Positions 3,257-54,429 of a stretch of DNA of 54,557 nt are shown in pieces (the first letter of the stretch is position 1; every line of letters begins with the position of its first letter). Origin of the DNA: Escherichia phage mEp044; sequence record PP180004; one strand, given 5' to 3'. A program made the translations under genes and the position numbers. Below the pieces are notes generated by a model that worked only from the letters and a program-made list of their open reading frames with translations, made no database searches and was not told the origin of the DNA.

Positions 3257-3810
3257 AATTCCAACCCCGTTTCGCCGTTAAGTTTTTCGATCTCAAATAT
3301 TGGTTTATCCGGTAGCAGGCCGTTATTTTTCCGGTATTCGTTCAGGCGTCTGTCAAAGTCAAAAGCCAAATCATTAGCGTGACCGAAGCGCCCAGGTTTA
3401 AACAATGAGTAAAAATTTACCCCGTGTCGGTTAGGGTCAACGCAAAGCGTTTCATCAATAACCATTAAACGCAGAGTACGAGATAGATAATTCCACGGAA
3501 TACCCGTTTCCGCGCTAATGTCGCGCATACGCTTTTTAACGCTGTAGTCACCAAATAACGCAGCGACGCGCTCGCGACGTTCAGCATATAACTGTTTAAT
3601 ACGATAACCAAGCAGTCGGCGGCGGCGTCCAAAACATGTATACACGCGCTCGACGATGCCGTTTTTTATTAAGTGTTTAATTGTCTCAGGCATGATTCCA
3701 TCCTTATCATACCCGACCAATAATCCTGTTTTCTGGCGTAACTGGTGCATTGTTGCGATGCCATCAAGTTCAAGGATATTGATAATTTTTGTTTCAATTT
3801 CAGCGCTCAT
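3253..3810 (-). CDS. hypothetical protein, 185 aa
   Basis: ORF in the replication/nin operon; no family recognised. Confidence 0.5.
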   Translation of the reverse strand: MSAEIETKIINILELDGIATMHQLRQKTGLLVGYDKDGIMPETIKHLIKNGIVERVYTCFGRRRRLLGYRIKQLYAERRERVAALFGDYSVKKRMRDISAETGIPWNYLSRTLRLMVIDETLCVDPNRHGVNFYSLFKPGRFGHANDLAFDFDRRLNEYRKNNGLLPDKPIFEIEKLNGETGLEL

Positions 3811-38865: not shown

Positions 38866-41214
38866 ATGTCCACCAGTTTAGGTACAATTTATTACGAAGT
38901 TGATGCAAAAACTGGTCAACTTCTAGTCGCTCAGCGACAGGCGGACCAGGCTTTTGACAGTATCGAGCGTGGCGCAAAACGCGCTGACCGCCAGGTAAAC
39001 ACGCTTAAGACTTCAATCAAAGCACTATCCAGGGTCATTCATCTGTTGCTTGCTGCGGAGGCTGTACGCCAGTTTATTGACATGGCGGAACAAGCAAAAA
39101 TGCTTCGCGTAAAAATCAAATTGCTTACAGGTGAAGCGGAGGCCACGGAACGTGTTTTCAATAGACTGAAAGAAATATCAAAAGAAACAGGCCAAAGCCT
39201 CAAGGATACTGGCGATCTGTGGCAAGGTCTTGCTATATCGCTAAAAAACACATCCGCTACGGAAGGCCAGGTGCTTAACCTGGTTAGCACGCTGCAAAAA
39301 CTCGGCAACCTGGGCGGCGTGTCTGCGGAACAACTATCAAACTCCATGCGTCAGTTCCGCCAGGCGATTGATGCTGGCGTGTTGCAGGCTGAAGAATTTA
39401 ACTCAATACGTGACAACACACCAACAATCATACAGGAAATGGCCCGCCAAATGGGATTGTCAATGGGGCAGTTCCGCGCTGAAATGCTGGACGGCAAGAT
39501 CACTGCTGAAAGGATGCTCAACGCGATCCAGGCCGCCACGCAGGAAACAAACGAGAAGTTTGCGCAGTTGCCGCGCACATCCGGCATGGCCTTCAACGAG
39601 CTTAAAGTTGAGGTGATGGGACTTGTCGAACAGTTAGACGATCTTTTCGGCATATCAGATGGCGTTGTGTCAGCAATAGACTTAATCACTGGTGGCGTTG
39701 AGGGATTAGGTAAAGGCGCAAAATTCGCCGCAACATGCTTCAATACACTAAAAACGGCTGGCAGCGAATTTATCGATATGTTTGATGATGTGGCTGTTAA
39801 GGCTGGAGAGGTGGCGGAAGAGATTATTAGGATGGTAACGCCAATCAAGGCGCTAATGGATGGCTACAAATGGATGAAGGAGATTATTGACAAACGCAAG
39901 GAAGAGCTAAACAGCAATAACGAGAAGAAATTTGGCCCCACCATTGGCAAATTCATGACGTTTAAGAATGACATCGAAAAAGCGACTGCCGCTTATGATG
40001 AGTTCATGCAGAAACAGGGGGAGGCTGACGACGGCAAGATCACCGGATTCGATCAGCCAGTTGGCAAACCGAAAAAAGGTAAAAAAGGCAAAAAAGACAA
40101 GAAATCTGAAGCTGATCGGCTTGGTGATGAAGGTGTAAATGTCTCCGACCAGTACAACAAAGACGCCGCCGCTATGCGTAAAGCACTGGAGAACGGCAAG
40201 GCCATTGACGCTGCGTTTGCTCAGGGCAAAATAACCCTCCTTGAGTACAAGGCAGCGCAAAAGGGGATAGGCAAGGAACTGAAGGACGAATTGGCCCAAA
40301 TCCCGGTGGAGGAATTGCAAGACAAATGGGCGCACATAGTAAGCCCGATGGATCAGCTTAAGGGCGAAATCGACCCAATCAAACAGGCGCAAAATGAATG
40401 GGCAGTAAGAAAGCAAATGTTATTAGACCTGGGAGCTACAGAGGCGCAACAGAGACAGGCGCAGTTAGAATATGAACAACAGATCCGCGATCTGAAGTGG
40501 GAACAATGGCAGGCGCAAAGCGACACAAACGGCCTGATCGGTGCTTGTGTCAGTGGCCTAAAAGGTGGCATGGGCAATGCGCTTACTGGCCTGTTGAACG
40601 GTACTCAATCATTAAGCGAGGTTTTCGCCAACCTGGGAAGCAGTATACTCAACACCGTAGGCAATAAACTTTCTGAAATAGCCGCTAACTGGATAGCAGA
40701 TCAATTAATGATGGAAACGCAAAGCAAGGCTACCCAGGCAAGTACAACTGCTGGCGCTGTGGCGGCGCAGGGCGAGATTGCTGCGGCTGCGGCCCCGGCA
40801 GCGGCTGCGACGGCTGCGTCAACTGGTGGTAGCTGGGCTGCGGCTGGCGCTGCGGCTCTTTCTGCGATCATGTCGCTGGCGACGTCAATTTTTGGCGGCG
40901 GGCGTTATAATGGTGGTTCTGTGAATGGTGGTAGTCTGTATCGCGTAGGGGAACACGGAATACCGGAGCTATTCCAGACGAGCAACGGGCGTCAGTACAT
41001 GATCCCTGGGGAAAATGGCAGGGTTATTCCTGGCCGCGATCTTTTCAGCGGTGGCGGCATTAACATGCCTGTTAACATTACAGTTCAGACCACAAACGGG
41101 TTTGGCGACGAAGACGGTCGCAGACTTGAACAGACTATGGAGCGCGTAGCAATGAAGATGATGGCAAGGGAATCACAACGACCTGGAGGAATGTTGCAAC
41201 CGCGCCGCAAATAA
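38866..41214 (+). CDS. tail tape measure protein
   Basis: 782 aa; long helical protein with Ala/Gly-rich C-terminal segment, in the canonical position. Confidence 0.85.
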   Translation: MSTSLGTIYYEVDAKTGQLLVAQRQADQAFDSIERGAKRADRQVNTLKTSIKALSRVIHLLLAAEAVRQFIDMAEQAKMLRVKIKLLTGEAEATERVFNRLKEISKETGQSLKDTGDLWQGLAISLKNTSATEGQVLNLVSTLQKLGNLGGVSAEQLSNSMRQFRQAIDAGVLQAEEFNSIRDNTPTIIQEMARQMGLSMGQFRAEMLDGKITAERMLNAIQAATQETNEKFAQLPRTSGMAFNELKVEVMGLVEQLDDLFGISDGVVSAIDLITGGVEGLGKGAKFAATCFNTLKTAGSEFIDMFDDVAVKAGEVAEEIIRMVTPIKALMDGYKWMKEIIDKRKEELNSNNEKKFGPTIGKFMTFKNDIEKATAAYDEFMQKQGEADDGKITGFDQPVGKPKKGKKGKKDKKSEADRLGDEGVNVSDQYNKDAAAMRKALENGKAIDAAFAQGKITLLEYKAAQKGIGKELKDELAQIPVEELQDKWAHIVSPMDQLKGEIDPIKQAQNEWAVRKQMLLDLGATEAQQRQAQLEYEQQIRDLKWEQWQAQSDTNGLIGACVSGLKGGMGNALTGLLNGTQSLSEVFANLGSSILNTVGNKLSEIAANWIADQLMMETQSKATQASTTAGAVAAQGEIAAAAAPAAAATAASTGGSWAAAGAAALSAIMSLATSIFGGGRYNGGSVNGGSLYRVGEHGIPELFQTSNGRQYMIPGENGRVIPGRDLFSGGGINMPVNITVQTTNGFGDEDGRRLEQTMERVAMKMMARESQRPGGMLQPRRK

Positions 41215-43995: not shown

Positions 43996-44700
43996 ATGCG
44001 CAGCATACCTACAGAAATGATTATTGATTCCGTGGATGCCGGAGTCGGCGCGGTAATTGACTTGTTTGAATTAGACCTCACGCCCCTGGGTGGCGAGGTT
44101 ATCCGCTTCCATTCCGGCGCGAATGGCTATTACGGCCCGGTTATCTGGAAGGGAGTGGCTTACAACAGCTATCCAATCGAGGCAACTGGCTTCGAAATGA
44201 AAAACGAGGGTGTTTACTCACGCCCCCAAATGGTAGTAGCCAACATTGGCGGGCTAATCACCGGGATGAATAACGATTTCAACGACCTGCGAGGAATGAA
44301 GGTTACGCGCCGCCAGGTGGAAGTAAAATACCTGGACGCCGTTAATTTCCCCAACGGCAACCCGGATGCAGATCCATCTATTGAGGCTGTGTCTTTTTAC
44401 GTCGTTGAAGCGATGAGCGAAGAAACAGCCGACCAGGTGCAATATGAACTGTCAACGCCAATTGATGCTGATAAGGCGGTTATCCCGGGGCGCACAATTC
44501 TCGCTGACGTTTGCCAGTGGCAATATCGCGGCGACGGTTGCGGATACAGCGGCGGCCCTGTAGCTACAGATAAAGACGAATCGACCAGCGATCCAAAACT
44601 GGACAGATGCAGCCACCGCTTGAGCGGTTGTCGTTTACGTTTCCCGCGTCCAAATCCGTTACCAATTTCCTGTTTCCCTGGTTCCAGCAAGGTAGGTTAA
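43996..44700 (+). CDS. L: minor tail protein L
   Basis: 234 aa; strong resemblance to lambda gpL (LDAVNF.NGN..ADP ... GRT.LAD.C.W.YRGD.CGYSG ... C..RLSGC). Confidence 0.9.
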   Translation: MRSIPTEMIIDSVDAGVGAVIDLFELDLTPLGGEVIRFHSGANGYYGPVIWKGVAYNSYPIEATGFEMKNEGVYSRPQMVVANIGGLITGMNNDFNDLRGMKVTRRQVEVKYLDAVNFPNGNPDADPSIEAVSFYVVEAMSEETADQVQYELSTPIDADKAVIPGRTILADVCQWQYRGDGCGYSGGPVATDKDESTSDPKLDRCSHRLSGCRLRFPRPNPLPISCFPGSSKVG

Positions 44701-44702
44701 TC

Positions 44703-45434
44703 ATGGTAATGGAAGACAAAATGTTGCGTTATGCCGCCGCGCATCCGTTTGAAGAAGTATGCGGGCTGGTGATAGATAACGATTATTTTTACCCATGCTT
44801 AAACGTGTCTGAAACGCCGCACAACAGCTTTAAAATCTCGCCTGACGATTATATCAAAGCTGACGAATTAGGCGTTATAACCGCCGTTTTTCACTCCCAC
44901 ACTGACAATTCATTGGTATTGTCGGCGCGGGATCGACAACAGCAGGTTATTTCCGGGCTGCCGTGGTTTTTGTGTTCAGGTGGTAGGGTAAGAAAATTCC
45001 GCCCAGTGGCACACCTGTTAGGCCGTAAATTTGAGCACGGGAAAACAGACTGCTATTCGCTTTTCCGTGACGCCTATCACCTTTGCGGCGTGGATCTGCC
45101 TGACTTTGAGCGCCTTGATGGGTGGTGGCTGCGTGGGGAAAACCTGTATTTAAAAAACTTGCCTCTAAACGGGTTTTATCAGGTTGACGCGCAAAGCATT
45201 CAGCCAGGTGATGTGATTATCCGCCAGCCGTTTAAAGGCGCTGACCCATGTCACGCGATGATTTACCTGGGCGACAATACTGTTTTGCATCATGACAATG
45301 CCGGACTGTTAAGCCGCCGCGAGCAAATGCGGCCCGCTTATGTTCGGCAGACCAACTCAATATGGAGATCTGACAAATGCTCAAGTTTAGATTTACGGGC
45401 AATCTTCGAAGATATTACGGCAAGGTGTGTTTAA
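44703..45434 (+). CDS. K: tail assembly protein K (MPN/JAB plus NlpC/P60-like domains)
   Basis: ORF 44607-45434 with start at ATG 44703; strong resemblance to lambda gpK (RKFRPVAHLLGRKFEHGKTDCYSLFRDAYHLCG). Confidence 0.9.
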   Translation: MVMEDKMLRYAAAHPFEEVCGLVIDNDYFYPCLNVSETPHNSFKISPDDYIKADELGVITAVFHSHTDNSLVLSARDRQQQVISGLPWFLCSGGRVRKFRPVAHLLGRKFEHGKTDCYSLFRDAYHLCGVDLPDFERLDGWWLRGENLYLKNLPLNGFYQVDAQSIQPGDVIIRQPFKGADPCHAMIYLGDNTVLHHDNAGLLSRREQMRPAYVRQTNSIWRSDKCSSLDLRAIFEDITARCV

Positions 45435-45907
45435 ACGTTGATACGCCAGCGCAGGGACTTCGCTTATTGACCGCACAGAATCAGGAGTTCAAGAAGGCTT
45501 TTTTAAACACCCCATTGCGCTTGCGAATTGCCGGAAAAGATTACGACGAAAAGACTGCGCCAGCAGCGGTTAACAGTAAATACCCGGATGGGACTACCGT
45601 CATTGTTGCGCCAGTGGTGGAAGGCGGTATTGCAGGAATTGGCGTTGTAGGTTGGATTTTGATCGGTGTTTCGGTTGTTAGCGTTGCGTTCTCGATCTTT
45701 ATGTCTCGCAACATGAAGATAAAAACATCAGCAGAAAGCGCACAAGATAACACCATATCTAACAACACATACACCAGCGTTGAAAACAAGGTTGGCCAGG
45801 GTAGACCAGTGCCGATCCTGTTGGGTGAAATGAAGATAGGTTCAAACGTCGGATCGTTAGGCATAGACACAAGTAATAACAAAGACGCCTTAGACGTTGT
45901 AAGTTAA
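45377..45907 (+). CDS. I: tail assembly protein I
   Basis: 176 aa; Gly/Ile-rich hydrophobic centre and GEMKIGSNV motif as in lambda gpI. Confidence 0.8.
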   Translation: MLKFRFTGNLRRYYGKVCLNVDTPAQGLRLLTAQNQEFKKAFLNTPLRLRIAGKDYDEKTAPAAVNSKYPDGTTVIVAPVVEGGIAGIGVVGWILIGVSVVSVAFSIFMSRNMKIKTSAESAQDNTISNNTYTSVENKVGQGRPVPILLGEMKIGSNVGSLGIDTSNNKDALDVVS

Positions 45908-45920
45908 CAGGAGAAAAGCC

Positions 45921-48900
45921 ATGAGTAGCGGCGGCGGCAAAGCCAAAACACCAACATTATTAAACGATAACCTGTATCATAAACAGTTTTATCGTGTTTT
46001 AGACATTCTCAGCGAGGGGCCGATATACGGCCCGGCAAACCAGAATGCGCCATTAAACAACGTAATGCTTAATGACACGCCTATCACTGACGCAAACGGA
46101 AACACATCAATTCCTGGGATTAGTATAGCCTGGCGAAACGGCACGGCTGACCAATCGCCGATTAATGGTTTTAATGCCATCGAATCAACCGTTATTGTCA
46201 ACGCAAAGGTAACTCACGACACACCAATAATAAGGACTGTTTCAGATCCAAACGTTACCCGCGTAAGGTTAAATCTTGGCGTTGATGCTCTTGTTCAGTC
46301 AGATGATGAGGGCAATCAATATAATACATCCGTTATGTTGATGGTTGATGTTAAACCGTCAACATCTTCTACGTGGTCGCTGGTTAAAGATATACACATT
46401 GGTCCCGGTAAACAAAGCGGCGAATATCTGGAAGCTCACATTATCAAAGCGCCGGATGAAAAGCCGTTTGATATTCGCGTTCGTCGCGCAACGGCAGACA
46501 GCAAAAGCGATCTTCTTCGTAATGATACGCGGTGGAGTAGCTACAGCGAAATAATCGACGATAATTTATCTTATCCTCATACCGCTGTTGCTGGCGCGGT
46601 AATTGACCATGACCAGTATACTGATACTCCTACCCGTACATATCACCTGCGCGGGCTGATTGTTGATGTTCCTGATAACTACGACCCGGAAACGCGCACG
46701 TACTCAGGTTTATGGCTTGGTGGCTTTAAAAAAGCGTATACCAATAACCCTGCATGGCTTTTCCGGTATCTGGTGAAAAATGAACGCTTCGGGCTTGCCC
46801 GCCACGCTGGTTACGTTGATGTTGACGACGGAGCATTATATACGCTTTCTCAATACTGCGACCAGTTGGTAAACGACGGTTACGGCGGCTTTGAACCACG
46901 CATGACGCTTAATGCTTACATCACGGAGCAAATGAGCGCACGAGACTTGCTGGATAACATTGCAGGTATGTTCCGTGGTATCGCGTTATGGGACGGGCAA
47001 CGCCTTACTGTGATGATTGATGCGCCACAGGATCCAATTGCCACCATTACAAATGCAAACGTCGTTGATGGCGCGTTTACTCGTTCAAGTATCGCCCGTG
47101 CAGAATCTTACAACGCCGTGATTGTGTCATGGACTGACCCGGAAAACGGTTGGGAGCAATCAAAAGAATACGTGGCAGATGATGAACTGATCGCCCGCGA
47201 TGGTTATAACGAAACCACTTTAGAGGCGTTCGGTTGTACGTCACGCGGGCAGGCGTACCGCGCTGGCAAGTGGCTGATAGAAACAGCAAAACGCGAACCA
47301 TCAAAATTCACGTTTAAAATGGCCCGTGACGCAATTCACTTCACCCCGGGTGATATTATCGAGATACTCGACAATAACCGCGCAGGCGCTCGTTTAGGCG
47401 GTCGTATCGTGGCTAATAATGGCAAGGTGATAACGGTCGATAAGGTTGATTCTGAATATATCGCGGCTGGTGACACTATCAGTTTGCTTGATAGTGATGG
47501 CAAGTTTAAAAAACACCAGATCACCGGAGTTAACGGAAACAACATCACCCTTGCAACCGCCCCCGCATGGATTCGTAACGGGACCGTATTCGCTGTGTCA
47601 ACTGAAGCGGCAAGACCTGTTCTGTGTCGAATTATCAGCGTAGCGGAAACCGAAAATAACAGCGTGTACACCATCGAGGCTGCACAGCATGATCCGCACA
47701 AGCAGGCAGTAGTTGATGAAGGTGCAATCTTCGAGGTAAACAACGACACGCTTAATCACTTCCGCGTGCCGAACATTGAAAACCTGAAGGTGTTAAATGT
47801 TGGTTCTGAAACTGTTCAATGTCGCGCTACATGGGAAACACATACGACAACGCATCGCCTGACCTTTGAGATCCGCGTATATAATGCAGACGGTCGCGTG
47901 GTGGCAAGTTATGAAACAACGAATTACCGTTATGAATTTTATGGCCTCGAAGCAGGCAGCTACACGCTTGGTATTCGCGGTCGTAATGACACTGGCATGA
48001 AGGGCGCTGAAAGTATTGTGGATCTGGTGATTGGTGCACCATTGGCCCCTGTCGGCGTTAATTGGGTTCCGGGCGTTTTCCAGGCAACAGTATACCCGAT
48101 CAGCAAAACAACCCTGACCACTGATACGGCATATGAGTTCTACTTCTCAGGTGAAAACCAGATCACAGATCCATCAAAAGTAACCACGCTGGCGCAGTTC
48201 ACCGGGCGCGGCTACCAATGGACTTTTGGCGGCATGAACACGGGTCATACCTATTACGTTTATGTGCGCACGCGTAATGCCTTTGGTGTGTCAGACTTCG
48301 TTGAAGCATCAGGCGAACCGACTGAAAACTTCGATGAAATCAGCGACTACGTCACAAAAGACGTGATTAATTCAGAACAGTTTAAGGGGATGATTAGCGA
48401 CATTAAAGATCTTGGCGACCGCGCCGACCTTATCGAAAGCGCTACAAATGACCTTAAAACTGCTACCGACAACCTCAAAACTGCAACTGATAACCTGACA
48501 AACATCACTGACGATTTGAGGGTTGACACGGACAACCTGACAAACATCACTGACGAATTGAGGACTGATACGGACGGCCTAATCACAGAAACAGGGGCCA
48601 TAAAAGCTGATACGGACACACTGAAAAAAGAGACGGAAGATCTTTATAAAAAGGTTGGGGAAAACGCCGATGATATTGGACAGCATGAGGCAAGAATAGA
48701 TTCGCTGGAGGTATCTAGCGAAAAAGTTGGCAGTGAACTAGCACAAGCAAAAGCAAGCCTGCAAAATGCGTCATTGGCGCTTATCAATAACTCACTTGCA
48801 CAGACTAACACGCGCGTAACTCTTACCGCCCAATACAAGAAAGGTAGGACAGAGACGAGGGCTGAAATTGACCGCATTGACAACGTTATTGCTGAAGAGA

Positions 48901-51407
48901 AAAAGGCAACGGCGGAATCACTGGAAACCATCACGGCAGAAATGAACACGATGGATTCTAACCTTAAAGGTCAGATCTCAAGCGTGGAACGTGCAGTGGC
49001 TGACGAGGCCAGCGCACGCGCAGAAGCCATTAACGGTGTGAACGCATCAATAAGCAATCTAGACAAGAAAACAGACGCCAGCATCAATAGACTTGATCAA
49101 GCTATTGCAGACGAAACGACCGCCCGCACACAGGCAGTCAGTGACGTTAACGCGAGTATCTCATCGCTAGACAAGAAAACTGGCGCCAGCGTGAAACGCT
49201 TGGATCAAGCGATTGCAGACGAAACCAGCGCAAGAACTGAAGCTATCAGCGGAGTGAACGCATCAATTTCCACGCTTGATAGCAAGGTAACAAGCAATGT
49301 AACGCGCATAGATAAAGCTATTGCAGACGAAACGAAGGCACGCACTGACGCAATCAGCGGCGTTAATGCAAGTATTAGCACACTCGAAGGCAACACCAAT
49401 TCAGAAGTGAAACGCCTTGATCAAGCAATAGCTGACGAGACTAGTGCCCGCACACAGGCTATCAGCGGTGTAAATGCTTCAATAAGCAATCTTGAAAGCA
49501 AAACCGACGCCAGCGTTTCCCGTCTTGATAAAGCAATAGCAGATGAAACGCAGGCAAGAAGTGCTGCAATAACAGATGTTAAAGCTGATTTAACAACACT
49601 CGAAAACAGCACAAACGCCAGCGTCAAACGTCTTGATCAGGCAATTGCCGACGAATCAAGTGCCCGCGCTGAAGCAATATCAGGCATCAATGCAGAGATT
49701 GGCAACATTGAAAATAATGTTGACAAAAACAGCGATGATATAAATCAGACAAAAGCAAGCCTGCAAAACGCGTCTATCGCGCTTATTAACAACTCAATCG
49801 CTCAAACAAACACGCGTGTTACGCTTACGGCCCAATACAAGAAAGGCCGCAAAGAAACCAACGCGCAAATTGACCGTATTGACAATGTTATCGCTGAAGA
49901 GAAAAAGGCTACAGCGGAAGCGGTTAGCGTGGTAAAAGCATCGATCACGGATCTTGATAAGAAGACTGACGCGAGCGTTTCCCGTCTCGACAAGGCTATC
50001 GCAGACGAAACAAGCGCACGCAGCGAGGCTATTAGCGGAGTAAATGCCTCAGTGTCAGCGCTAGACAAGAAAACGGATTCAAACATAAGCCGTCTTGATA
50101 AAGCCATTGCAGATGAGACAAGCGCAAGAACTGAAGCTATCAGTGGAGTGAATGCAAGTATTATCACTCTTGAAAGCAACACTGAATCTGAAGTTAGCAG
50201 GCTGGATCAGGCAATTGCCGACGAATCAAGTGCCCGCACCCAGGCTATAAGCGGAGTGAACGCATCAATTTCCACGCTTGATAGTAAGGTGACAAGTAAC
50301 GTAACCCGTATTGACAAGGCAATTGCAGACGAAACGAACGCCCGCACTGACGCGATAAGTAGCCTTAATTCATCGCTTACCAGTACGATTAACTCGAAGG
50401 TGTCTGAGGTATCAACGGCGCTTTCTACGCATGAAGCATCAAGCGCAGAAAAATTTAGCCAGATCTCAGCGTCTTTCGATTCTGTAAATTCAAGTATTAC
50501 AGAATGGTCGCAGGCTATGGCAACGGCTGACGAGGCATTATCAAGCAAAATTGATCAGCTAACAGTAACCGTTAACGGGAACACGACAGCAATAGAGACA
50601 ACATCGAATGCGCTAACCGATTTCAAGGGTAACGTTGATGCGTCATATTCCATCAAGCTGGCAACAGATAACAACGGCATGAAGTACGCTACAGGTATGT
50701 CGCTTGGCCTGACTGGTAACGGCACAAACTTTCAATCGCAGTGTATTTTCCTTGTTGACCGCTTCGTATTAATGACCGCAGCAAACGGCACATATACAAC
50801 GCCTTTCTATGTATCTAATGGCGCTATGTATGTGAAAGAAGCGTTTATTAAAAACGCATCAATAGGAGAAGCTAAAATTGCAAACGCCGCAATCACATCA
50901 GCCAAAATTGCACAGCAGATACAGTCAACTGAATTTGTTAAAGACTCAAAAGGTTGGATGATTAACAAAGATGGGTGGGCGGAGTTCAATAGCGTTACGG
51001 TGAGGGGGACTGTGTATGCTACGGACGGTAAGTTCTCCGGTTCGCTTGAGGCGAAAACCTTTATCGGTGATGTTGCGAATATGTATACAGGAGGTGACGT
51101 TAGTAGATTAAATGATGGTGTGCTAGAAAAAACAATCACATACAACGATACATCAAGTGCAGCACATAGTAGACACATCTGCGTTATGGCAAACGTCAAA
51201 GGTTTTGGTGGCTGCACGATAAACATTGGAGGTTCAGAAAAAAACCTTGCTATGAATGGAGATGAGCGTCTTGTCATGCATTCAGCGGCAATAACTACCA
51301 AGAGCGTTACAGTTAAAATTAAGGTATCCGCTCAAAATAGCAAGGGTGCATATATAAATTCGCCGACCGTCATTGTGTCGCGCGGTTCTGGTTCATTCTC
51401 AGGATAA
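45921..51407 (+). CDS. J: tail tip/host specificity protein J with an internal coiled-coil repeat expansion
   Basis: 1828 aa; N-terminal ~1000 aa resemble lambda gpJ (ISEGPIYGP, WSSYSEIID, FGCTSRGQAYRAGKWLIETAK); repeats at about aa 930-1500. Confidence 0.9.
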   Translation: MSSGGGKAKTPTLLNDNLYHKQFYRVLDILSEGPIYGPANQNAPLNNVMLNDTPITDANGNTSIPGISIAWRNGTADQSPINGFNAIESTVIVNAKVTHDTPIIRTVSDPNVTRVRLNLGVDALVQSDDEGNQYNTSVMLMVDVKPSTSSTWSLVKDIHIGPGKQSGEYLEAHIIKAPDEKPFDIRVRRATADSKSDLLRNDTRWSSYSEIIDDNLSYPHTAVAGAVIDHDQYTDTPTRTYHLRGLIVDVPDNYDPETRTYSGLWLGGFKKAYTNNPAWLFRYLVKNERFGLARHAGYVDVDDGALYTLSQYCDQLVNDGYGGFEPRMTLNAYITEQMSARDLLDNIAGMFRGIALWDGQRLTVMIDAPQDPIATITNANVVDGAFTRSSIARAESYNAVIVSWTDPENGWEQSKEYVADDELIARDGYNETTLEAFGCTSRGQAYRAGKWLIETAKREPSKFTFKMARDAIHFTPGDIIEILDNNRAGARLGGRIVANNGKVITVDKVDSEYIAAGDTISLLDSDGKFKKHQITGVNGNNITLATAPAWIRNGTVFAVSTEAARPVLCRIISVAETENNSVYTIEAAQHDPHKQAVVDEGAIFEVNNDTLNHFRVPNIENLKVLNVGSETVQCRATWETHTTTHRLTFEIRVYNADGRVVASYETTNYRYEFYGLEAGSYTLGIRGRNDTGMKGAESIVDLVIGAPLAPVGVNWVPGVFQATVYPISKTTLTTDTAYEFYFSGENQITDPSKVTTLAQFTGRGYQWTFGGMNTGHTYYVYVRTRNAFGVSDFVEASGEPTENFDEISDYVTKDVINSEQFKGMISDIKDLGDRADLIESATNDLKTATDNLKTATDNLTNITDDLRVDTDNLTNITDELRTDTDGLITETGAIKADTDTLKKETEDLYKKVGENADDIGQHEARIDSLEVSSEKVGSELAQAKASLQNASLALINNSLAQTNTRVTLTAQYKKGRTETRAEIDRIDNVIAEEKKATAESLETITAEMNTMDSNLKGQISSVERAVADEASARAEAINGVNASISNLDKKTDASINRLDQAIADETTARTQAVSDVNASISSLDKKTGASVKRLDQAIADETSARTEAISGVNASISTLDSKVTSNVTRIDKAIADETKARTDAISGVNASISTLEGNTNSEVKRLDQAIADETSARTQAISGVNASISNLESKTDASVSRLDKAIADETQARSAAITDVKADLTTLENSTNASVKRLDQAIADESSARAEAISGINAEIGNIENNVDKNSDDINQTKASLQNASIALINNSIAQTNTRVTLTAQYKKGRKETNAQIDRIDNVIAEEKKATAEAVSVVKASITDLDKKTDASVSRLDKAIADETSARSEAISGVNASVSALDKKTDSNISRLDKAIADETSARTEAISGVNASIITLESNTESEVSRLDQAIADESSARTQAISGVNASISTLDSKVTSNVTRIDKAIADETNARTDAISSLNSSLTSTINSKVSEVSTALSTHEASSAEKFSQISASFDSVNSSITEWSQAMATADEALSSKIDQLTVTVNGNTTAIETTSNALTDFKGNVDASYSIKLATDNNGMKYATGMSLGLTGNGTNFQSQCIFLVDRFVLMTAANGTYTTPFYVSNGAMYVKEAFIKNASIGEAKIANAAITSAKIAQQIQSTEFVKDSKGWMINKDGWAEFNSVTVRGTVYATDGKFSGSLEAKTFIGDVANMYTGGDVSRLNDGVLEKTITYNDTSSAAHSRHICVMANVKGFGGCTINIGGSEKNLAMNGDERLVMHSAAITTKSVTVKIKVSAQNSKGAYINSPTVIVSRGSGSFSG
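48741..50400 (+). repeat. in-frame coding tandem repeats inside J: about eleven 108-bp (36-aa) units in two blocks, each block headed by a ~180-bp duplicated segment (48741 and 49750)
   Basis: repeated peptide LDQAIADETSARTEAISGVNASIS...; attgcagacgaaac recurs every 108-109 bp. Confidence 0.8.
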
Positions 51408-51414
51408 AAAACAA

Positions 51415-51440
51415 CCCCGCATCGCGCGGGGTTTTCTTTT
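51415..51440. terminator. bidirectional terminator after J
   Basis: hairpin ccccgc-atcgc-gcgggg with T-runs on both strands. Confidence 0.6.
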
Positions 51441-51687
51441 AGTAGTTGGCTACACAGTTCGACGGGCTACCGATGCGGCGCATGTTGTGATCGAGTTCAT
51501 GACACCATTGCCCAGTATACGGCAGTTTTTCAGTGTCATAGACAAGATGACCGCTGCCATCATAGACAACATCCTGTGGAATTACTCCGCTATTAGGCAG
51601 GTTATGCAATGCGGCCTCTTTGTCAATAGCGCAACCAGTAAGAGCAACAGCCGCAGAGAACAAAACCACTTTGAACACGTTTTTCAT
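51439..51687 (-). CDS. lipoprotein (signal peptide plus lipobox LTGC), antisense between J and the tail fibre; Cor/Lom-position candidate
   Basis: 82 aa; MKNVFKVVLFSAAVALTGC lipoprotein signal. Confidence 0.55.
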   Translation of the reverse strand: MKNVFKVVLFSAAVALTGCAIDKEAALHNLPNSGVIPQDVVYDGSGHLVYDTEKLPYTGQWCHELDHNMRRIGSPSNCVANY

Positions 51688-51864: not shown

Positions 51865-54429
51865 ATGATTTACACAACTGGAACAATTGCCATCAACGGC
51901 AACACTGTTAAAGGCACGGGAACAGACTTTTCCGCGCCGCTTTCTCTCATTCGTGTAGGGTGCACGCTCATTGCTATCAGCAACCCCATCCAGATCTTTA
52001 CCGTTACTGAAATCAAGAGCGGCACTGAACTATCAGTGACGCCAGCGGCTAACCCTGCAATTGCTGCCGGGACAAAATTCAGTATTCTACTTTCTGACTC
52101 GATCTCAGTTGATGGGCTTGCCCAGGATGTAGCAGAAACGCTTCGTTTTTATCAGGAAAAAGAAGATGAAATAACAAGCGCAATAGATGGCAGCAATATT
52201 GGCTTGGGGCCAGAGCCGCGAGATTGCACCGATATATCAGGCGATCCGTCTTCTTACGTTGGCTTTTTGCGCATAAAGGAAACGGCTAAGGGTTTTCCTT
52301 CTGTAGCGGCTGGTGAATCATTTTTGAGTGGATTCATCTGTCAACGAGATGTCACGCCTTCATATACAGGCGTCTTTGTCGGTTGGGCTACGCGATCACT
52401 TTATACTTATACATGGGTAGCCACATCAGGTCCGCAATGGACACGCAACGCAAGAAAAGATGAAGTTGACAGGCTTGTCCAAAGAACAGGAGAAACGCGC
52501 GTATGCTCTCAAAACGCAAATAAATTCCTTACTGTCTATGATTCTGGATCGTGGGGTTATTACGATTCAGAGGCCAGCAAATGGCTACCGCTTCCAATTC
52601 TTGCTGGCGGCACTGGCGCAACATCGCTTGATGATGCAAAAAAAAATCTTCAGATCCCTGAAGGCGGTCTATCAAAAACGATAACCATAAGCGCCCCATC
52701 AGGTATGGAAGATGGAAAATACTATCCTATAATCGTGTTTACTGGTGAAACAAACGGAGGAGCTTTTCCGTGTCCGGTTGAAATTGTAACTGTTGGCGGA
52801 CCTTCCACCTCAGAAATGAACAGCAATACATTTTCTGGTTATGTCAGATGCGGTGGATGGTCAGACATCAGAAATATAGCGTATGGGTACTATACTGCAT
52901 ACGAACCAAAAGAGGTTGCTATACTTTGCATTAAGGGATCAACCAAAGACTACGCTCAACATATAGCTTTTTATGTAAGCAATAAAGCGTTTCCAATTAA
53001 AATCCAAGTAGGATATAAAGCGCAAGTATTCGTGCCCACTAGTGATTATTCTTTGGGAACAAACGGGGTAAAATTCAAATTTGGCGTGTCAACATCAGAA
53101 GAGGGTAACACAGAAAACAGCGTTACTAATATACTTGATTTTACTGGTGGCCAATCAGGTTTTTACAGTAACGCATTATTCAGGCAAGGATACTCAACAA
53201 ATTTTGCGCTTACTAATAAATTAAACTCAACAGATCCGTTTATTGTTACGCTGCCGTCATTCACAGTTTTAGGGTCTATTAATTGCACTAAAGGACTTAT
53301 TGCATATGGCGAGGACGTAACCAACAGGACATTTGTATCACGGCGCACCAATGCAGCAGCCAATGAGACGCTTGATCAGTCAGAGTTCAGGGCAGCAGAA
53401 AAAGCCGCGCAAATTGTTGTTCGTGACATGACTGCATCAAACCATATGTTTTTTAATTTTAATGGTGATGGTACTTTTAATGCACCAGGAGGTCTTGTAT
53501 CACAGACTGGCACTGACTGGAACGGTCAGCAGTCAGATAACATAAACAGGTTTAAGCCGATTGCTGGTCAAATAAATACACCGGAAAATAATGTTGTTTA
53601 TGGCGGTTTTCATGTCGGTTTTAGCGGCAACTACGCAACCCAGTTCGCTGGGCGCAATTCAAAATTCTACGCCAGAAGTTTTGAGGCAGGAGTAGACAAA
53701 GGATGGTGTCAGCTTGCAACGCTTAACAATGAGCTTGTGCAAAGGTGGACGGGATACCAACAATTTAAATCAACGGATTTTTTTGCTGATACTTTCACAA
53801 GAAAAATAACTCTAGCCGTCTCAAATTCATCGGCAAGAAATGCCGAGCTTTATTTGTGGGGCGCTGAAAACCGTCCCACCGTACTTGAGTTCAAGATAAA
53901 GGATCCAGACACAGGTAGTGGGCTTTCATGGGCTTTTTACGCACAGCAAAACCAGGATGATTCATGCCAATTTAATGTTAACGGTGCTGTAAACTGCACA
54001 ACAGTTAACCAGTCATCTGACCGCGACTTGAAAGACAACATTCAGGTTATAGGTGACGCAACTGAAGCCATCCGTAAAATGAACGGGTACACTTATACCC
54101 TCAAGGAAAACGGCCTGCCTTACGCTGGCGTTATCGCTCAGGAGGTCATGGAGGCACTGCCGGAAGCTGTGGGGTCGTTTACTCATTACGGTAAAGCATT
54201 GCAAGGACCGACCATTGACGGCAACGAGCTACGCGAAGAAACGCGTTATCTCAATGTTGACTACGCCGCAGTAACTGGTTTACTTGTCCAGGTTGCACGA
54301 GAAACGGATAACCGCGTCACCGAACTGGAAGAAGAAAACGCAAGCCTACGCGCTAACATTGCCGCAATGGATGAGCGTATCGCAAAACTTGAAGCGCTTG
54401 TCAGTAAGTTGACAGAAGGCGAAAAATAA
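51865..54429 (+). CDS. tail fibre/tailspike with C-terminal intramolecular-chaperone (peptidase S74) domain
   Basis: 854 aa; C-terminal SSDRDLKDNIQ ... LNVDYAAVTGLLVQ and coiled-coil end typical of S74 autoproteolytic chaperone domains. Confidence 0.75.
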   Translation: MIYTTGTIAINGNTVKGTGTDFSAPLSLIRVGCTLIAISNPIQIFTVTEIKSGTELSVTPAANPAIAAGTKFSILLSDSISVDGLAQDVAETLRFYQEKEDEITSAIDGSNIGLGPEPRDCTDISGDPSSYVGFLRIKETAKGFPSVAAGESFLSGFICQRDVTPSYTGVFVGWATRSLYTYTWVATSGPQWTRNARKDEVDRLVQRTGETRVCSQNANKFLTVYDSGSWGYYDSEASKWLPLPILAGGTGATSLDDAKKNLQIPEGGLSKTITISAPSGMEDGKYYPIIVFTGETNGGAFPCPVEIVTVGGPSTSEMNSNTFSGYVRCGGWSDIRNIAYGYYTAYEPKEVAILCIKGSTKDYAQHIAFYVSNKAFPIKIQVGYKAQVFVPTSDYSLGTNGVKFKFGVSTSEEGNTENSVTNILDFTGGQSGFYSNALFRQGYSTNFALTNKLNSTDPFIVTLPSFTVLGSINCTKGLIAYGEDVTNRTFVSRRTNAAANETLDQSEFRAAEKAAQIVVRDMTASNHMFFNFNGDGTFNAPGGLVSQTGTDWNGQQSDNINRFKPIAGQINTPENNVVYGGFHVGFSGNYATQFAGRNSKFYARSFEAGVDKGWCQLATLNNELVQRWTGYQQFKSTDFFADTFTRKITLAVSNSSARNAELYLWGAENRPTVLEFKIKDPDTGSGLSWAFYAQQNQDDSCQFNVNGAVNCTTVNQSSDRDLKDNIQVIGDATEAIRKMNGYTYTLKENGLPYAGVIAQEVMEALPEAVGSFTHYGKALQGPTIDGNELREETRYLNVDYAAVTGLLVQVARETDNRVTELEEENASLRANIAAMDERIAKLEALVSKLTEGEK

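Follow-up and report, generated by a model that had tools for sequence, protein, structure and literature searches.

A repeat-built helical shaft in the tail tip protein J of coliphage mEp044, probably a length-adjustable spacer

In the tail tip of phage lambda, residues 809-861 of gpJ make up the alpha-helical shaft (AHS), which is a three-helix bundle of the J trimer that leads from the second fibronectin type III domain (FNIII-2) to a beta-sheet prism (PDB 8iyk, 8xcj; PMC11101478). Upon LamB binding the AHS flips by ~180 degrees and partly refolds to beta structure (PMC11101478), and the central fibre of lambda and Ur-lambda bends, bringing the tip to the membrane (PMC11101478 for lambda). 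Here we describe the equivalent part of gene J of Escherichia phage mEp044, within a window of 54,557 nucleotides (nt), which is the whole stretch of DNA that was analysed (record PP180004). The mEp044 protein belongs to the same family as gpJ, its shaft occupies the same position (after FNIII-2, before the beta-prism) in the same trimeric context, and ~50 residues at the start of the shaft and ~25 at its end can still be aligned with lambda. In contrast to the lambda shaft, which has ~53 residues and no internal repeats, that of mEp044 is ~770 residues long and contains arrays of 7 and 36 amino acids (aa) together with two conserved nodes. We suggest that this repeat region is a ~14-fold expanded AHS of the lambda type, probably a parallel trimeric coiled-coil rod, which would act as a length-adjustable spacer and evolve in quanta by rare recombination.

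Two further phage systems stand close to it. The J-like protein gp33 of phage T1 (PDB 9l9p; PMC11945409) carries IA[DT]ETxA repeats just ahead of its Phage_Tail_Tip-like part and matches the mEp044 array (phmmer, E = 3.7e-6), but has about three copies with a 33-residue period; this repeat region was too flexible for cryo-electron microscopy and was modelled only by AlphaFold3, as a ~37-nm alpha/beta fibre (PMC11945409). Closest of all are the J proteins of the mEpimmI group, since mEp044 is one of the six 'mEpimmI' coliphages described in Front Microbiol 2025 (PMC11893012) and the protein is the same. Genome-wide nucleotide similarity and synteny with mEp021-type phages place mEp044 in this group, and its nearest relatives in the phage BLAST collection are mEp554, mEp010 and mEp021, with 91-93% nt identity across 79-91% of a 24.5-kb query. 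The published account already mentions J 'repeats of different length (positions 950-1,475)' (PMC11893012), and the repeat feature is hence already known for mEp044 itself; it gives no unit length, block duplication, recombination analysis or account of the 1002-nt difference between mEp021 and mEp515, and the word 'coiled' occurs 0 times in its text and supplements. New here are the quantisation in 7 and 36 aa, a periodicity of 3.6 residues, the position of the array within the lambda AHS, the conserved node and the mEp021/mEp515 deletion.

A more distant likeness leads to the YadA-type adhesins of bacteria, which have trimeric coiled-coil stalks with variable repeat number. A profile of eleven mEp044 units, run against 1.84 billion cluster representatives, matched 67 proteins at E <= 1e-3 and 19 at <= 1e-10. 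Among the matches examined are J-like proteins (P0021, P0023), a pb4-spike central fibre (P0044) that carries an Ig_J_second domain, and a YadA-anchored trimeric autotransporter of 1834 aa (P0032), with a near-perfect 18-aa stalk repeat (VSRLDTAISDEKTKREQE) at aa ~1450-1710. The stalk of P0032 has the RLDxAI(A/S)DE motif in common with the mEp044 array, and its 18-residue (7+11) period is half of the 36-aa unit; unlike J, it is a surface protein of bacteria, has a YadA membrane anchor and lacks a J hub, beta-prism and phage context. The two may resemble each other by convergence, or because phage fibres and bacterial adhesin stalks have exchanged material. These trimeric fibre contexts support a trimeric coiled coil in mEp044 J without proving it. 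We rejected the idea that J is itself a trimeric autotransporter adhesin: the YadA-like anchor (PF03895) is absent from J in Pfam searches, and only the stalk-like motif is common to both.

Anatomy of J and its shaft

Gene J is a single open reading frame (ORF) in the ORF list, and an exact-sequence look-up identifies its 1828-aa product as WWQ70607.1, 'host specificity protein J' of Escherichia phage mEp044. Its parts are given below, with the evidence for each in brackets; AF2 denotes an AlphaFold2 model and TRF, Tandem Repeats Finder.

45921..51407, + strand: gene J, host-specificity / tip attachment protein (ORF, Pfam domains, identity to WWQ70607.1)
48327..48434, + strand: shaft start, aa 803-838 (NFDEISDYV...), still alignable to the top of the lambda gpJ shaft (lambda alignment; AF2 helix from aa 819)
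48435..48635, + strand: heptad array, aa 839-905, ~9 copies of a 7-aa unit (ATDNLKT / ITDDLRV / DTDTLKK; TDNLKTA-like) (TRF, lag identity)
48636..48749, + strand: pre-header helical linker, aa 906-943 (EDLYKKVGENADDIGQHEARIDSLEVSSEKVGSELAQA) (repeat family D5, header alignment)
48750..48842, + strand: header A, aa 944-974 (KASLQNASLALINNSLAQTNTRVTLTAQYKKG), near-invariant node (column conservation; AF2 helix break)
48843..49706, + strand: block A, 8 units of 36 aa, aa 975-1262 (unit coordinates, identity matrix, repeat families D1-D3 at 108-nt spacing)
49248..49282, + strand: longest exact direct repeat, copy 1, 35 nt (exact-repeat search)
49707..49751, + strand: inter-block linker, aa 1263-1277 (IENNVDKNSDDINQT) (unit coordinates, header alignment)
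49752..49844, + strand: header B, aa 1278-1308, copy of header A at +1002 nt (repeat family D4, AF2 helix break)
49845..50384, + strand: block B, 5 units of 36 aa, aa 1309-1488 (unit coordinates, identity matrix)
50250..50284, + strand: longest exact direct repeat, copy 2, 35 nt (exact-repeat search)
50385..50588, + strand: post-array helical segment, aa 1489-1556, which runs into the beta-prism (constant length among relatives; structure alignments)
50589..51404, + strand: central straight fibre (Phage_Tail_Tip, aa 1557-1704) and C-terminal receptor-binding end (aa 1705-1828) (Pfam, PDB alignments, aa identity)

The flanks of the shaft fix its position. Pfam finds FNIII-A_GpJ (88-214) and Phage-tail_3 (335-492) in the N-terminal part and Ig_J (609-707) and Ig_J_second (709-811) in the middle, all above cut-offs, and Phage_Tail_Tip (PF09327 / DUF1983) at aa 1557-1704 with 121 bits. 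J has the marks of a lambda-type TipJ, namely N-terminal hub domains with two FNIII/Ig domains, a C-terminal beta-prism central straight fibre, which also aligns to the F2-pyocin fibre and gp24, and the gene order L - K - I - J. As an equivalog of lambda J itself it was rejected, scoring 697.6 bits against a cut-off of 1950 (NCBIfam NF049904); judged by these matches, the two proteins are of one superfamily, but not the same protein. Residues 1-851 of mEp044 J match lambda J 1-858 (phmmer, E = 6e-179) and residues 1549-1721 can be aligned to lambda J 837-1000 in PDB alignments, which puts the ~700 extra amino acids inside the equivalent of the lambda AHS; flanking alignments and helix prediction agree on a helical segment between FNIII-2 and the beta-prism. 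The post-array segment can be matched to the helical lead-in found in the F2-pyocin fibre, in gp24 and in T1 gp33; beginning with aa 1549 it can also be matched to lambda J, from residue 837 on. In ES18, SPN3UB and Oslo, the nearest phages outside the group (~58% identity), J is matched in two pieces that span only ~3 kb, and these phages therefore have no array. An initial annotation of this DNA had proposed that the 1828-aa J carries an array, bracketed by 48741-50400, between a conserved N-terminal part and a C-terminal receptor-binding part; the Pfam, lambda and PDB alignments bear this out, and the boundaries set here are 48750-50384.

Within these boundaries the [LI]D[KQ]AIADE motif occurs ten times, exactly 36 aa apart, and a looser pattern yields 13 units, each of exactly 36 aa, in two blocks (8 + 5). 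The length first given for the unit was thus correct, and the count of about eleven approximately so. Residue identity at lag 36 is 0.498, against 0.091 +/- 0.013 in 2000 shuffled sequences (maximum 0.144). The first unit of block A is degenerate (IDRIDNVIAEEKKATAE) and embedded in the header. At the DNA level Tandem Repeats Finder detects only 1.9 copies of a 108-nt period, the units being too diverged, and the array is therefore defined at the protein level. Upstream of it lies a second, independent repeat array that had been overlooked, the heptad array, with TRF periods of 21 and 42 nt and a lag-7 residue identity of 0.45 (0.08 at lag 6, 0.07 at lag 8).

Each block is preceded by a header (ASLQNAS...TNTRVTLTAQYKKGR...IDRIDNVIAEEKKATAE; ...EEKKATAE), and the two copies lie, as had been noticed, about 1 kb apart: at aa 945 and aa 1279, an offset of 1002 nt. 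They are identical at 50 of 55 residues and 82% identical in DNA over 170 nt (family D4), with a proportion of synonymous differences (pS) of 0.54 and of nonsynonymous differences (pN) of 0.04. The start of the pre-header linker is weakly repeated ahead of header B (48643-48676 versus 49708-49741, 74%; family D5). For comparison we used 18 J proteins, from mEp044, six other phages and eleven E. coli prophages. Across the 30 header copies in these 18 genes, KASLQNASLALINNSLAQTNTRVTLTAQYKKG is at least 90% conserved in each column, far above the units; a variant second header is present in mEp013, M1/5 and M15. A PDB search with the header gave no hit, even at E <= 10. The alternation in T-R-V-T-L-T-A-Q-Y resembles that of a strand, and the header may be a structured node or hinge between rod segments.

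A single-sequence, monomeric AF2 model of aa 806-1560 consists of continuous helices at aa 819-968, 976-1304 and 1313-1559, broken only at the two headers, around TNTRVTLTAQYKKG (aa 969-975 and 1305-1312). Model confidence is lowest at the headers, with a predicted local distance difference test score (pLDDT) below 50 at aa 958-979. Fourier analysis of the 36-aa arrays puts the peak of the hydrophobic moment at exactly 3.60 residues (block A power 6.3, versus 0.03 at 3.5), and the upstream 7-aa zone has a hydrophobic period of 3.52. In a column profile of 106 distinct units from the 18 proteins, positions 9, 12, 16, 27, 30 and 34 have an aliphatic residue (Ile/Leu/Val/Met) in 100% of units, and position 1 has Leu/Met in 78%; with positions 5, 19/20 and 23 the core positions number ten, E19 and A22 are invariant, and R23 is present in 81%. 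The spacings between core positions (4,4,3,4,3,4,4,3,4,3) are those of a heptad-hendecad-heptad-hendecad (7-11-7-11) coiled coil, in which core positions recur at 36/10. According to coiled-coil theory, bundles with a period of 18/5 = 3.6 are straight and unsupercoiled, and trimers are favoured where both core positions have beta-branched residues. The unit falls in no Pfam or NCBIfam family and has sub-threshold coiled-coil matches only (SF-assemblin, SMC, Rad50, apolipoprotein). Taken with the all-helix prediction and the position in the lambda trimeric shaft, the 3.6 period makes the repeats look like a coiled coil.

Divergence of the units and variation in shaft length

The initial annotation had the array expanding and contracting by recombination because its repeats were near-identical in DNA. 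The change in copy number is real, as described below, but the reason given for it does not hold. Pairwise nt identity among the 11 canonical 108-nt units is 44-77% (mean 62%), equal to their aa identity; the best pair between blocks (units at 1119 and 1453) reaches 81% in aa and 77% in nt. Where two units have the same amino acid, they use the same codon in 41% of positions, versus 35% expected from J codon usage, mean pS is 0.74, with synonymous sites almost saturated, and mean pN is 0.27; codon sharing near expectation combined with high pS and low pN indicates that the units are old paralogues under purifying selection on the protein. No exact direct repeat in the region is longer than 35 nt (copies at 49248 and 50250). 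The suspected ~1-kb segmental duplication survives as a diverged copy at an offset of 1002 nt, not in its extent: the copy covers only ~630 nt (a header and 4-5 units) at 69% nt identity overall, rising to 80-83% in the header and 81-89% around 49237-49345.

We sought recent unit duplications (>95% nt identity) in the 18 J genes and found none, the maximum being 81%; as no gene contains two units above that value, recombination events between units must be rare. A hypermutable tandem-repeat locus of the contingency or slippage kind was rejected on the same grounds (mean unit identity 62%, maximum 77% in mEp044, and no J of the 18 with two units >81%). Diversity-generating retroelements and phase variation were also considered for the region and dropped. 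Units this old and synonymously diverged point to recombination that is rare and homeologous, rather than to slippage in a perfect array.

The initial annotation also called for a comparison of repeat number among relatives, and the number does vary, by whole-unit insertions and deletions. Across the 18 proteins J is 1350-1935 aa long and the shaft, taken from the FDEI to the ASYSIK anchor, 279-856 aa; the first ~803 aa are constant in length, and so are the 85 aa from the last unit to the ASYSIK anchor. The 36-aa array contains 2-15 units (block A 2-12, block B 0-5), always spaced by 36 aa, or by 82 aa across the block boundary. The second header is missing in seven of the 18, and the array is present in every one, with a minimum of two units and a header. 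The heptad zone is 92, 99, 106, 113, 127, 141 or 155 aa long, that is, it changes in 7-aa steps. Relative to mEp044 J, the alignment gaps are of 14 and 35 aa in the heptad zone and of 36, 108, 144, 298 and 334 aa in the 36-aa array.

One of these events, a recent one, can be read directly. Over a prefix of 3395 nt and a suffix of 792 nt the J genes of mEp021 and mEp515 have 100% DNA identity, and their sole difference is a deletion of 1002 nt (334 aa) in mEp515. The junction is a 5-nt GATAA (J nt 3391-3395), which adjoins the longest exact identity between the blocks of mEp021, 35 nt at J nt 3397/4399. Because the two blocks of mEp021 are themselves mutually diverged, what took place was loss from a two-block gene rather than a new duplication, and because mEp515 equals mEp021 minus a clean 1002 nt, the event documents contraction by recombination. 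In mEp044 the 35-nt repeats at 49248 and 50250 are the likeliest substrate for an in-frame deletion of 1002 nt. Units have also been shuffled between blocks, as block-B-type units (J, K, L, by best mEp044 counterpart per unit) lie inside block A of strains 190, NRZ96606, WCHEC025970 and 127.

Readings of the shaft

We posit that the shaft would join the second FNIII domain to the beta-prism fibre and the receptor-binding domain as a rod of three long helical segments: the canonical heptad array, block A, and block B with its 85-aa lead-out. Two copies of the near-invariant, non-helical node (…AQTNTRVTLTAQYKKG…) would separate these segments, and the heptad-hendecad-heptad-hendecad build of each 36-residue unit, with ten core positions and a period of 3.60, predicts straight, unsupercoiled helices. 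The shaft would then set the distance from the tail tip to the LamB-binding end, as a spacer whose length is adjustable and would change in quanta of 7 aa, of 36 aa or of a whole 334-aa block offset; such changes may alter the reach of the tail tip, as the initial annotation had it. Diverged units or blocks, of a single genome or of co-infecting relatives, would bring about these changes through rare unequal (homeologous) recombination that always keeps reading frame and helical register.

Several points weigh against this proposal. The AF2 model is weak, being monomeric and single-sequence, with a mean pLDDT of 62.6 and a predicted template modelling score of 0.21, and the parallel trimeric geometry would follow from homology of position only; no relative with a solved structure spans the array. 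At 0.15 nm per residue, 770 aa would reach ~115 nm if extended, near the length of the ~130-nm tail; mEpimmI tails are given as ~130 nm in a paper whose text leaves a long tip fibre unmentioned (PMC11893012). Both mEp021, with a 770-aa shaft, and mEp515, with a 436-aa shaft, infect K-12 via OmpA (PMC11893012), and with receptor and host in common no phenotype attaches to shaft length. Among relatives shaft length is uncorrelated with side-fibre length (r = -0.08, p = 0.80, n = 13) and unrelated to receptor-binding-domain type. Lastly, given the low DNA identity of the units, the recombination we invoke must be infrequent.

An ambitious extension of the proposal follows from the behaviour of lambda. 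If the tip must reach the membrane after LamB binding, a 100-nm rod would need joints, and the headers are candidates. The shaft may in this case be a jointed, collapsible rod of straight trimeric segments with beta-forming TNTRVTLTAQYKKG hinges, a ~100-nm fibre that folds after LamB binding and whose unit number is selected to fit the O-antigen or capsule thickness of the natural host; we offer this tentatively and regard it as rather unlikely. Were it true, the folding would be a scaled-up version of the 180-degree flip of the lambda shaft that brings the tail tip to the outer membrane, and it is directly testable with mEp021 and mEp515, a natural isogenic pair with J proteins identical except for 334 aa.

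The helical shaft could, instead of extending as a rod, be folded, with the headers as fixed turns and the three segments antiparallel in a thicker bundle, in which case unit number would matter far less. The predicted helix breaks coincide only with the two headers, the headers are much more conserved than the units, and the lambda shaft is capable of a 180-degree flip. The paper gives only ~130-nm tails, which the 782-aa ORF at 38866..41214, a putative tape measure by position only, would account for alone. Set against this, the segments are very unequal (about 150, 329 and 247 aa), and block A (2-12 units) and block B (0-5) vary independently, with seven of 18 J proteins devoid of the second header. 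Obligatory pairing of blocks is hard to sustain under such conditions, and we judge the folded arrangement unlikely.

It is also conceivable that the length variation is selectively neutral, any in-register unit number being tolerated, so that copy number drifts and neither reach nor host range is tuned. That mEp021 and mEp515 differ by 334 aa with the same receptor and the same host speaks for drift, as does the lack of correlation with side-fibre length or receptor-binding-domain type. The purifying selection on the units (mean pN 0.27 versus pS 0.74) speaks against it, as do the preservation of register in every observed insertion or deletion and the fact that no J in the group has lost the array. 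Selection and retention point to a need for some shaft, though not to any importance of its exact length; purely neutral variation seems to us improbable.

A ligand-binding role, in which the repeats would be modules for host glycans, mucus or another virion protein and not a passive spacer, appears very improbable. Conservation of the surface residues D13, D18 and N31 is at least 90% among the units of mEp044 itself, and among the 106 distinct units of the group it is 94%, 79% and 55%, respectively; the motif is, moreover, common to the stalk of a bacterial trimeric autotransporter adhesin. YadA-type adhesins, however, carry such a motif in the stalk and not in the binding head, no binding-domain family was detected with Pfam or NCBIfam, and inter-helix salt bridges explain the conserved charged residues equally well. 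That the repeat count is an artefact of assembly, by collapse or expansion of the tandem array, is scarcely credible: although tandem repeats are in general prone to it, we found no specific support, and with units of 44-77% nt identity and no exact repeat longer than 35 nt ordinary reads place each diverged unit uniquely, the independently assembled mEp554 and mEp021 have the identical 8+5 layout, and the J ORF is intact.

We note that the receptor-binding domain of a siphophage with a lambda-like tip has two tasks, to find its porin and then to allow the tail tube access to the membrane. A shaft of 279-856 residues within one close phage group shows how freely the distance between tip and receptor can change, and if the tip is held perhaps 100 nm from the receptor, how DNA ejection is triggered becomes a question. 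Variable coiled-coil stalks are familiar in phage fibres and bacterial adhesins, and the variation seen here is a fairly ordinary route to different fibre lengths. The 7-aa, 36-aa and header structure offers in-register cut points for engineering fibre length, for which mEp021 and mEp515 are a ready-made natural length pair.

The receptor-binding end, tail genes and neighbouring features

The C-terminal ~130 aa of mEp044 J are 89-92% identical in aa to mEp554, versus 26% to mEp021, and the receptor-binding end is, by this identity, of the mEp554 (LamB-user) type; mEp554 uses LamB and mEp021 uses OmpA (PMC11893012). J is a mosaic, its hub and shaft being closest to mEp021 (97.4% nt identity in the repeat region) and its C-terminus closest to mEp554. 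A C-terminus like that of mEp554, and not of mEp021, places a swap of the receptor-binding domain just downstream of the beta-prism, at 50900-51404 of the window (J aa ~1660-1828).

Upstream of J lie the remaining tail genes of the lambda order.

43996-44700: tail gene L (Phage_tail_L; Pfam)
44607-45434, + strand: homologue of tail gene K (NlpC/P60 and a weak JAB match)
45377-45907: putative tail gene I, a 176-aa ORF without a Pfam match, named by position and by the 531-nt ORF of relatives annotated 'tail assembly protein I'

A possible start of the K homologue overlaps the end of L by ~94 nt, and the K genes of relatives are annotated inconsistently, in 828-nt, 765-nt, 732-nt or 714-nt versions. 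In mEp021 and mEp515 a 567-nt ORF lies between I and J (L002, L003; 2942-3508), overlaps the start of J and is annotated in mEp021 as a putative HNH endonuclease; it is absent from mEp044 (end of I, 45907; start of J, 45921) and from mEp554, mEp010, mEp013 and MagusPhagus.

Four ORFs of 101-164 aa run antisense within J (48644-48949, 49802-50182, 50207-50548 and 50807-51301, - strand), the repeat region containing three of the four; they are most likely a by-product of the Ala/Ser/Asp-rich repeat codons. A gene embedded on the opposite strand was considered and rejected, since these ORFs have no supporting signal and promoter-like sequences number 1, versus 5.6 expected from shuffling.

Six bases past the J stop codon, a perfect GC-rich hairpin (AACCCCGCGCGATGCGGGGTT; 51413-51433) flanked by T-runs on either side has the look of a bidirectional intrinsic terminator common to J and a convergent lipoprotein gene. 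The latter (51439-51687, - strand), between J and the side-fibre gene, is an 82-aa ORF with a signal peptide and lipobox (…VALTGC…) and corresponds to the Lpp-type superinfection-exclusion lipoprotein of the mEpimmI paper (PMC11893012), in which Lpp010 excludes LamB-dependent phages, lambda included. Beyond it, 51865-54429 (+ strand) encodes a side tail fibre of 854 aa, in which a Peptidase_S74 intramolecular-chaperone domain (aa 718-769) precedes a short C-terminal tail rich in heptads; relatives have exchanged this gene for fibres of quite another kind, 449 to about 1160 aa long, with no dependence on the length of the J shaft.

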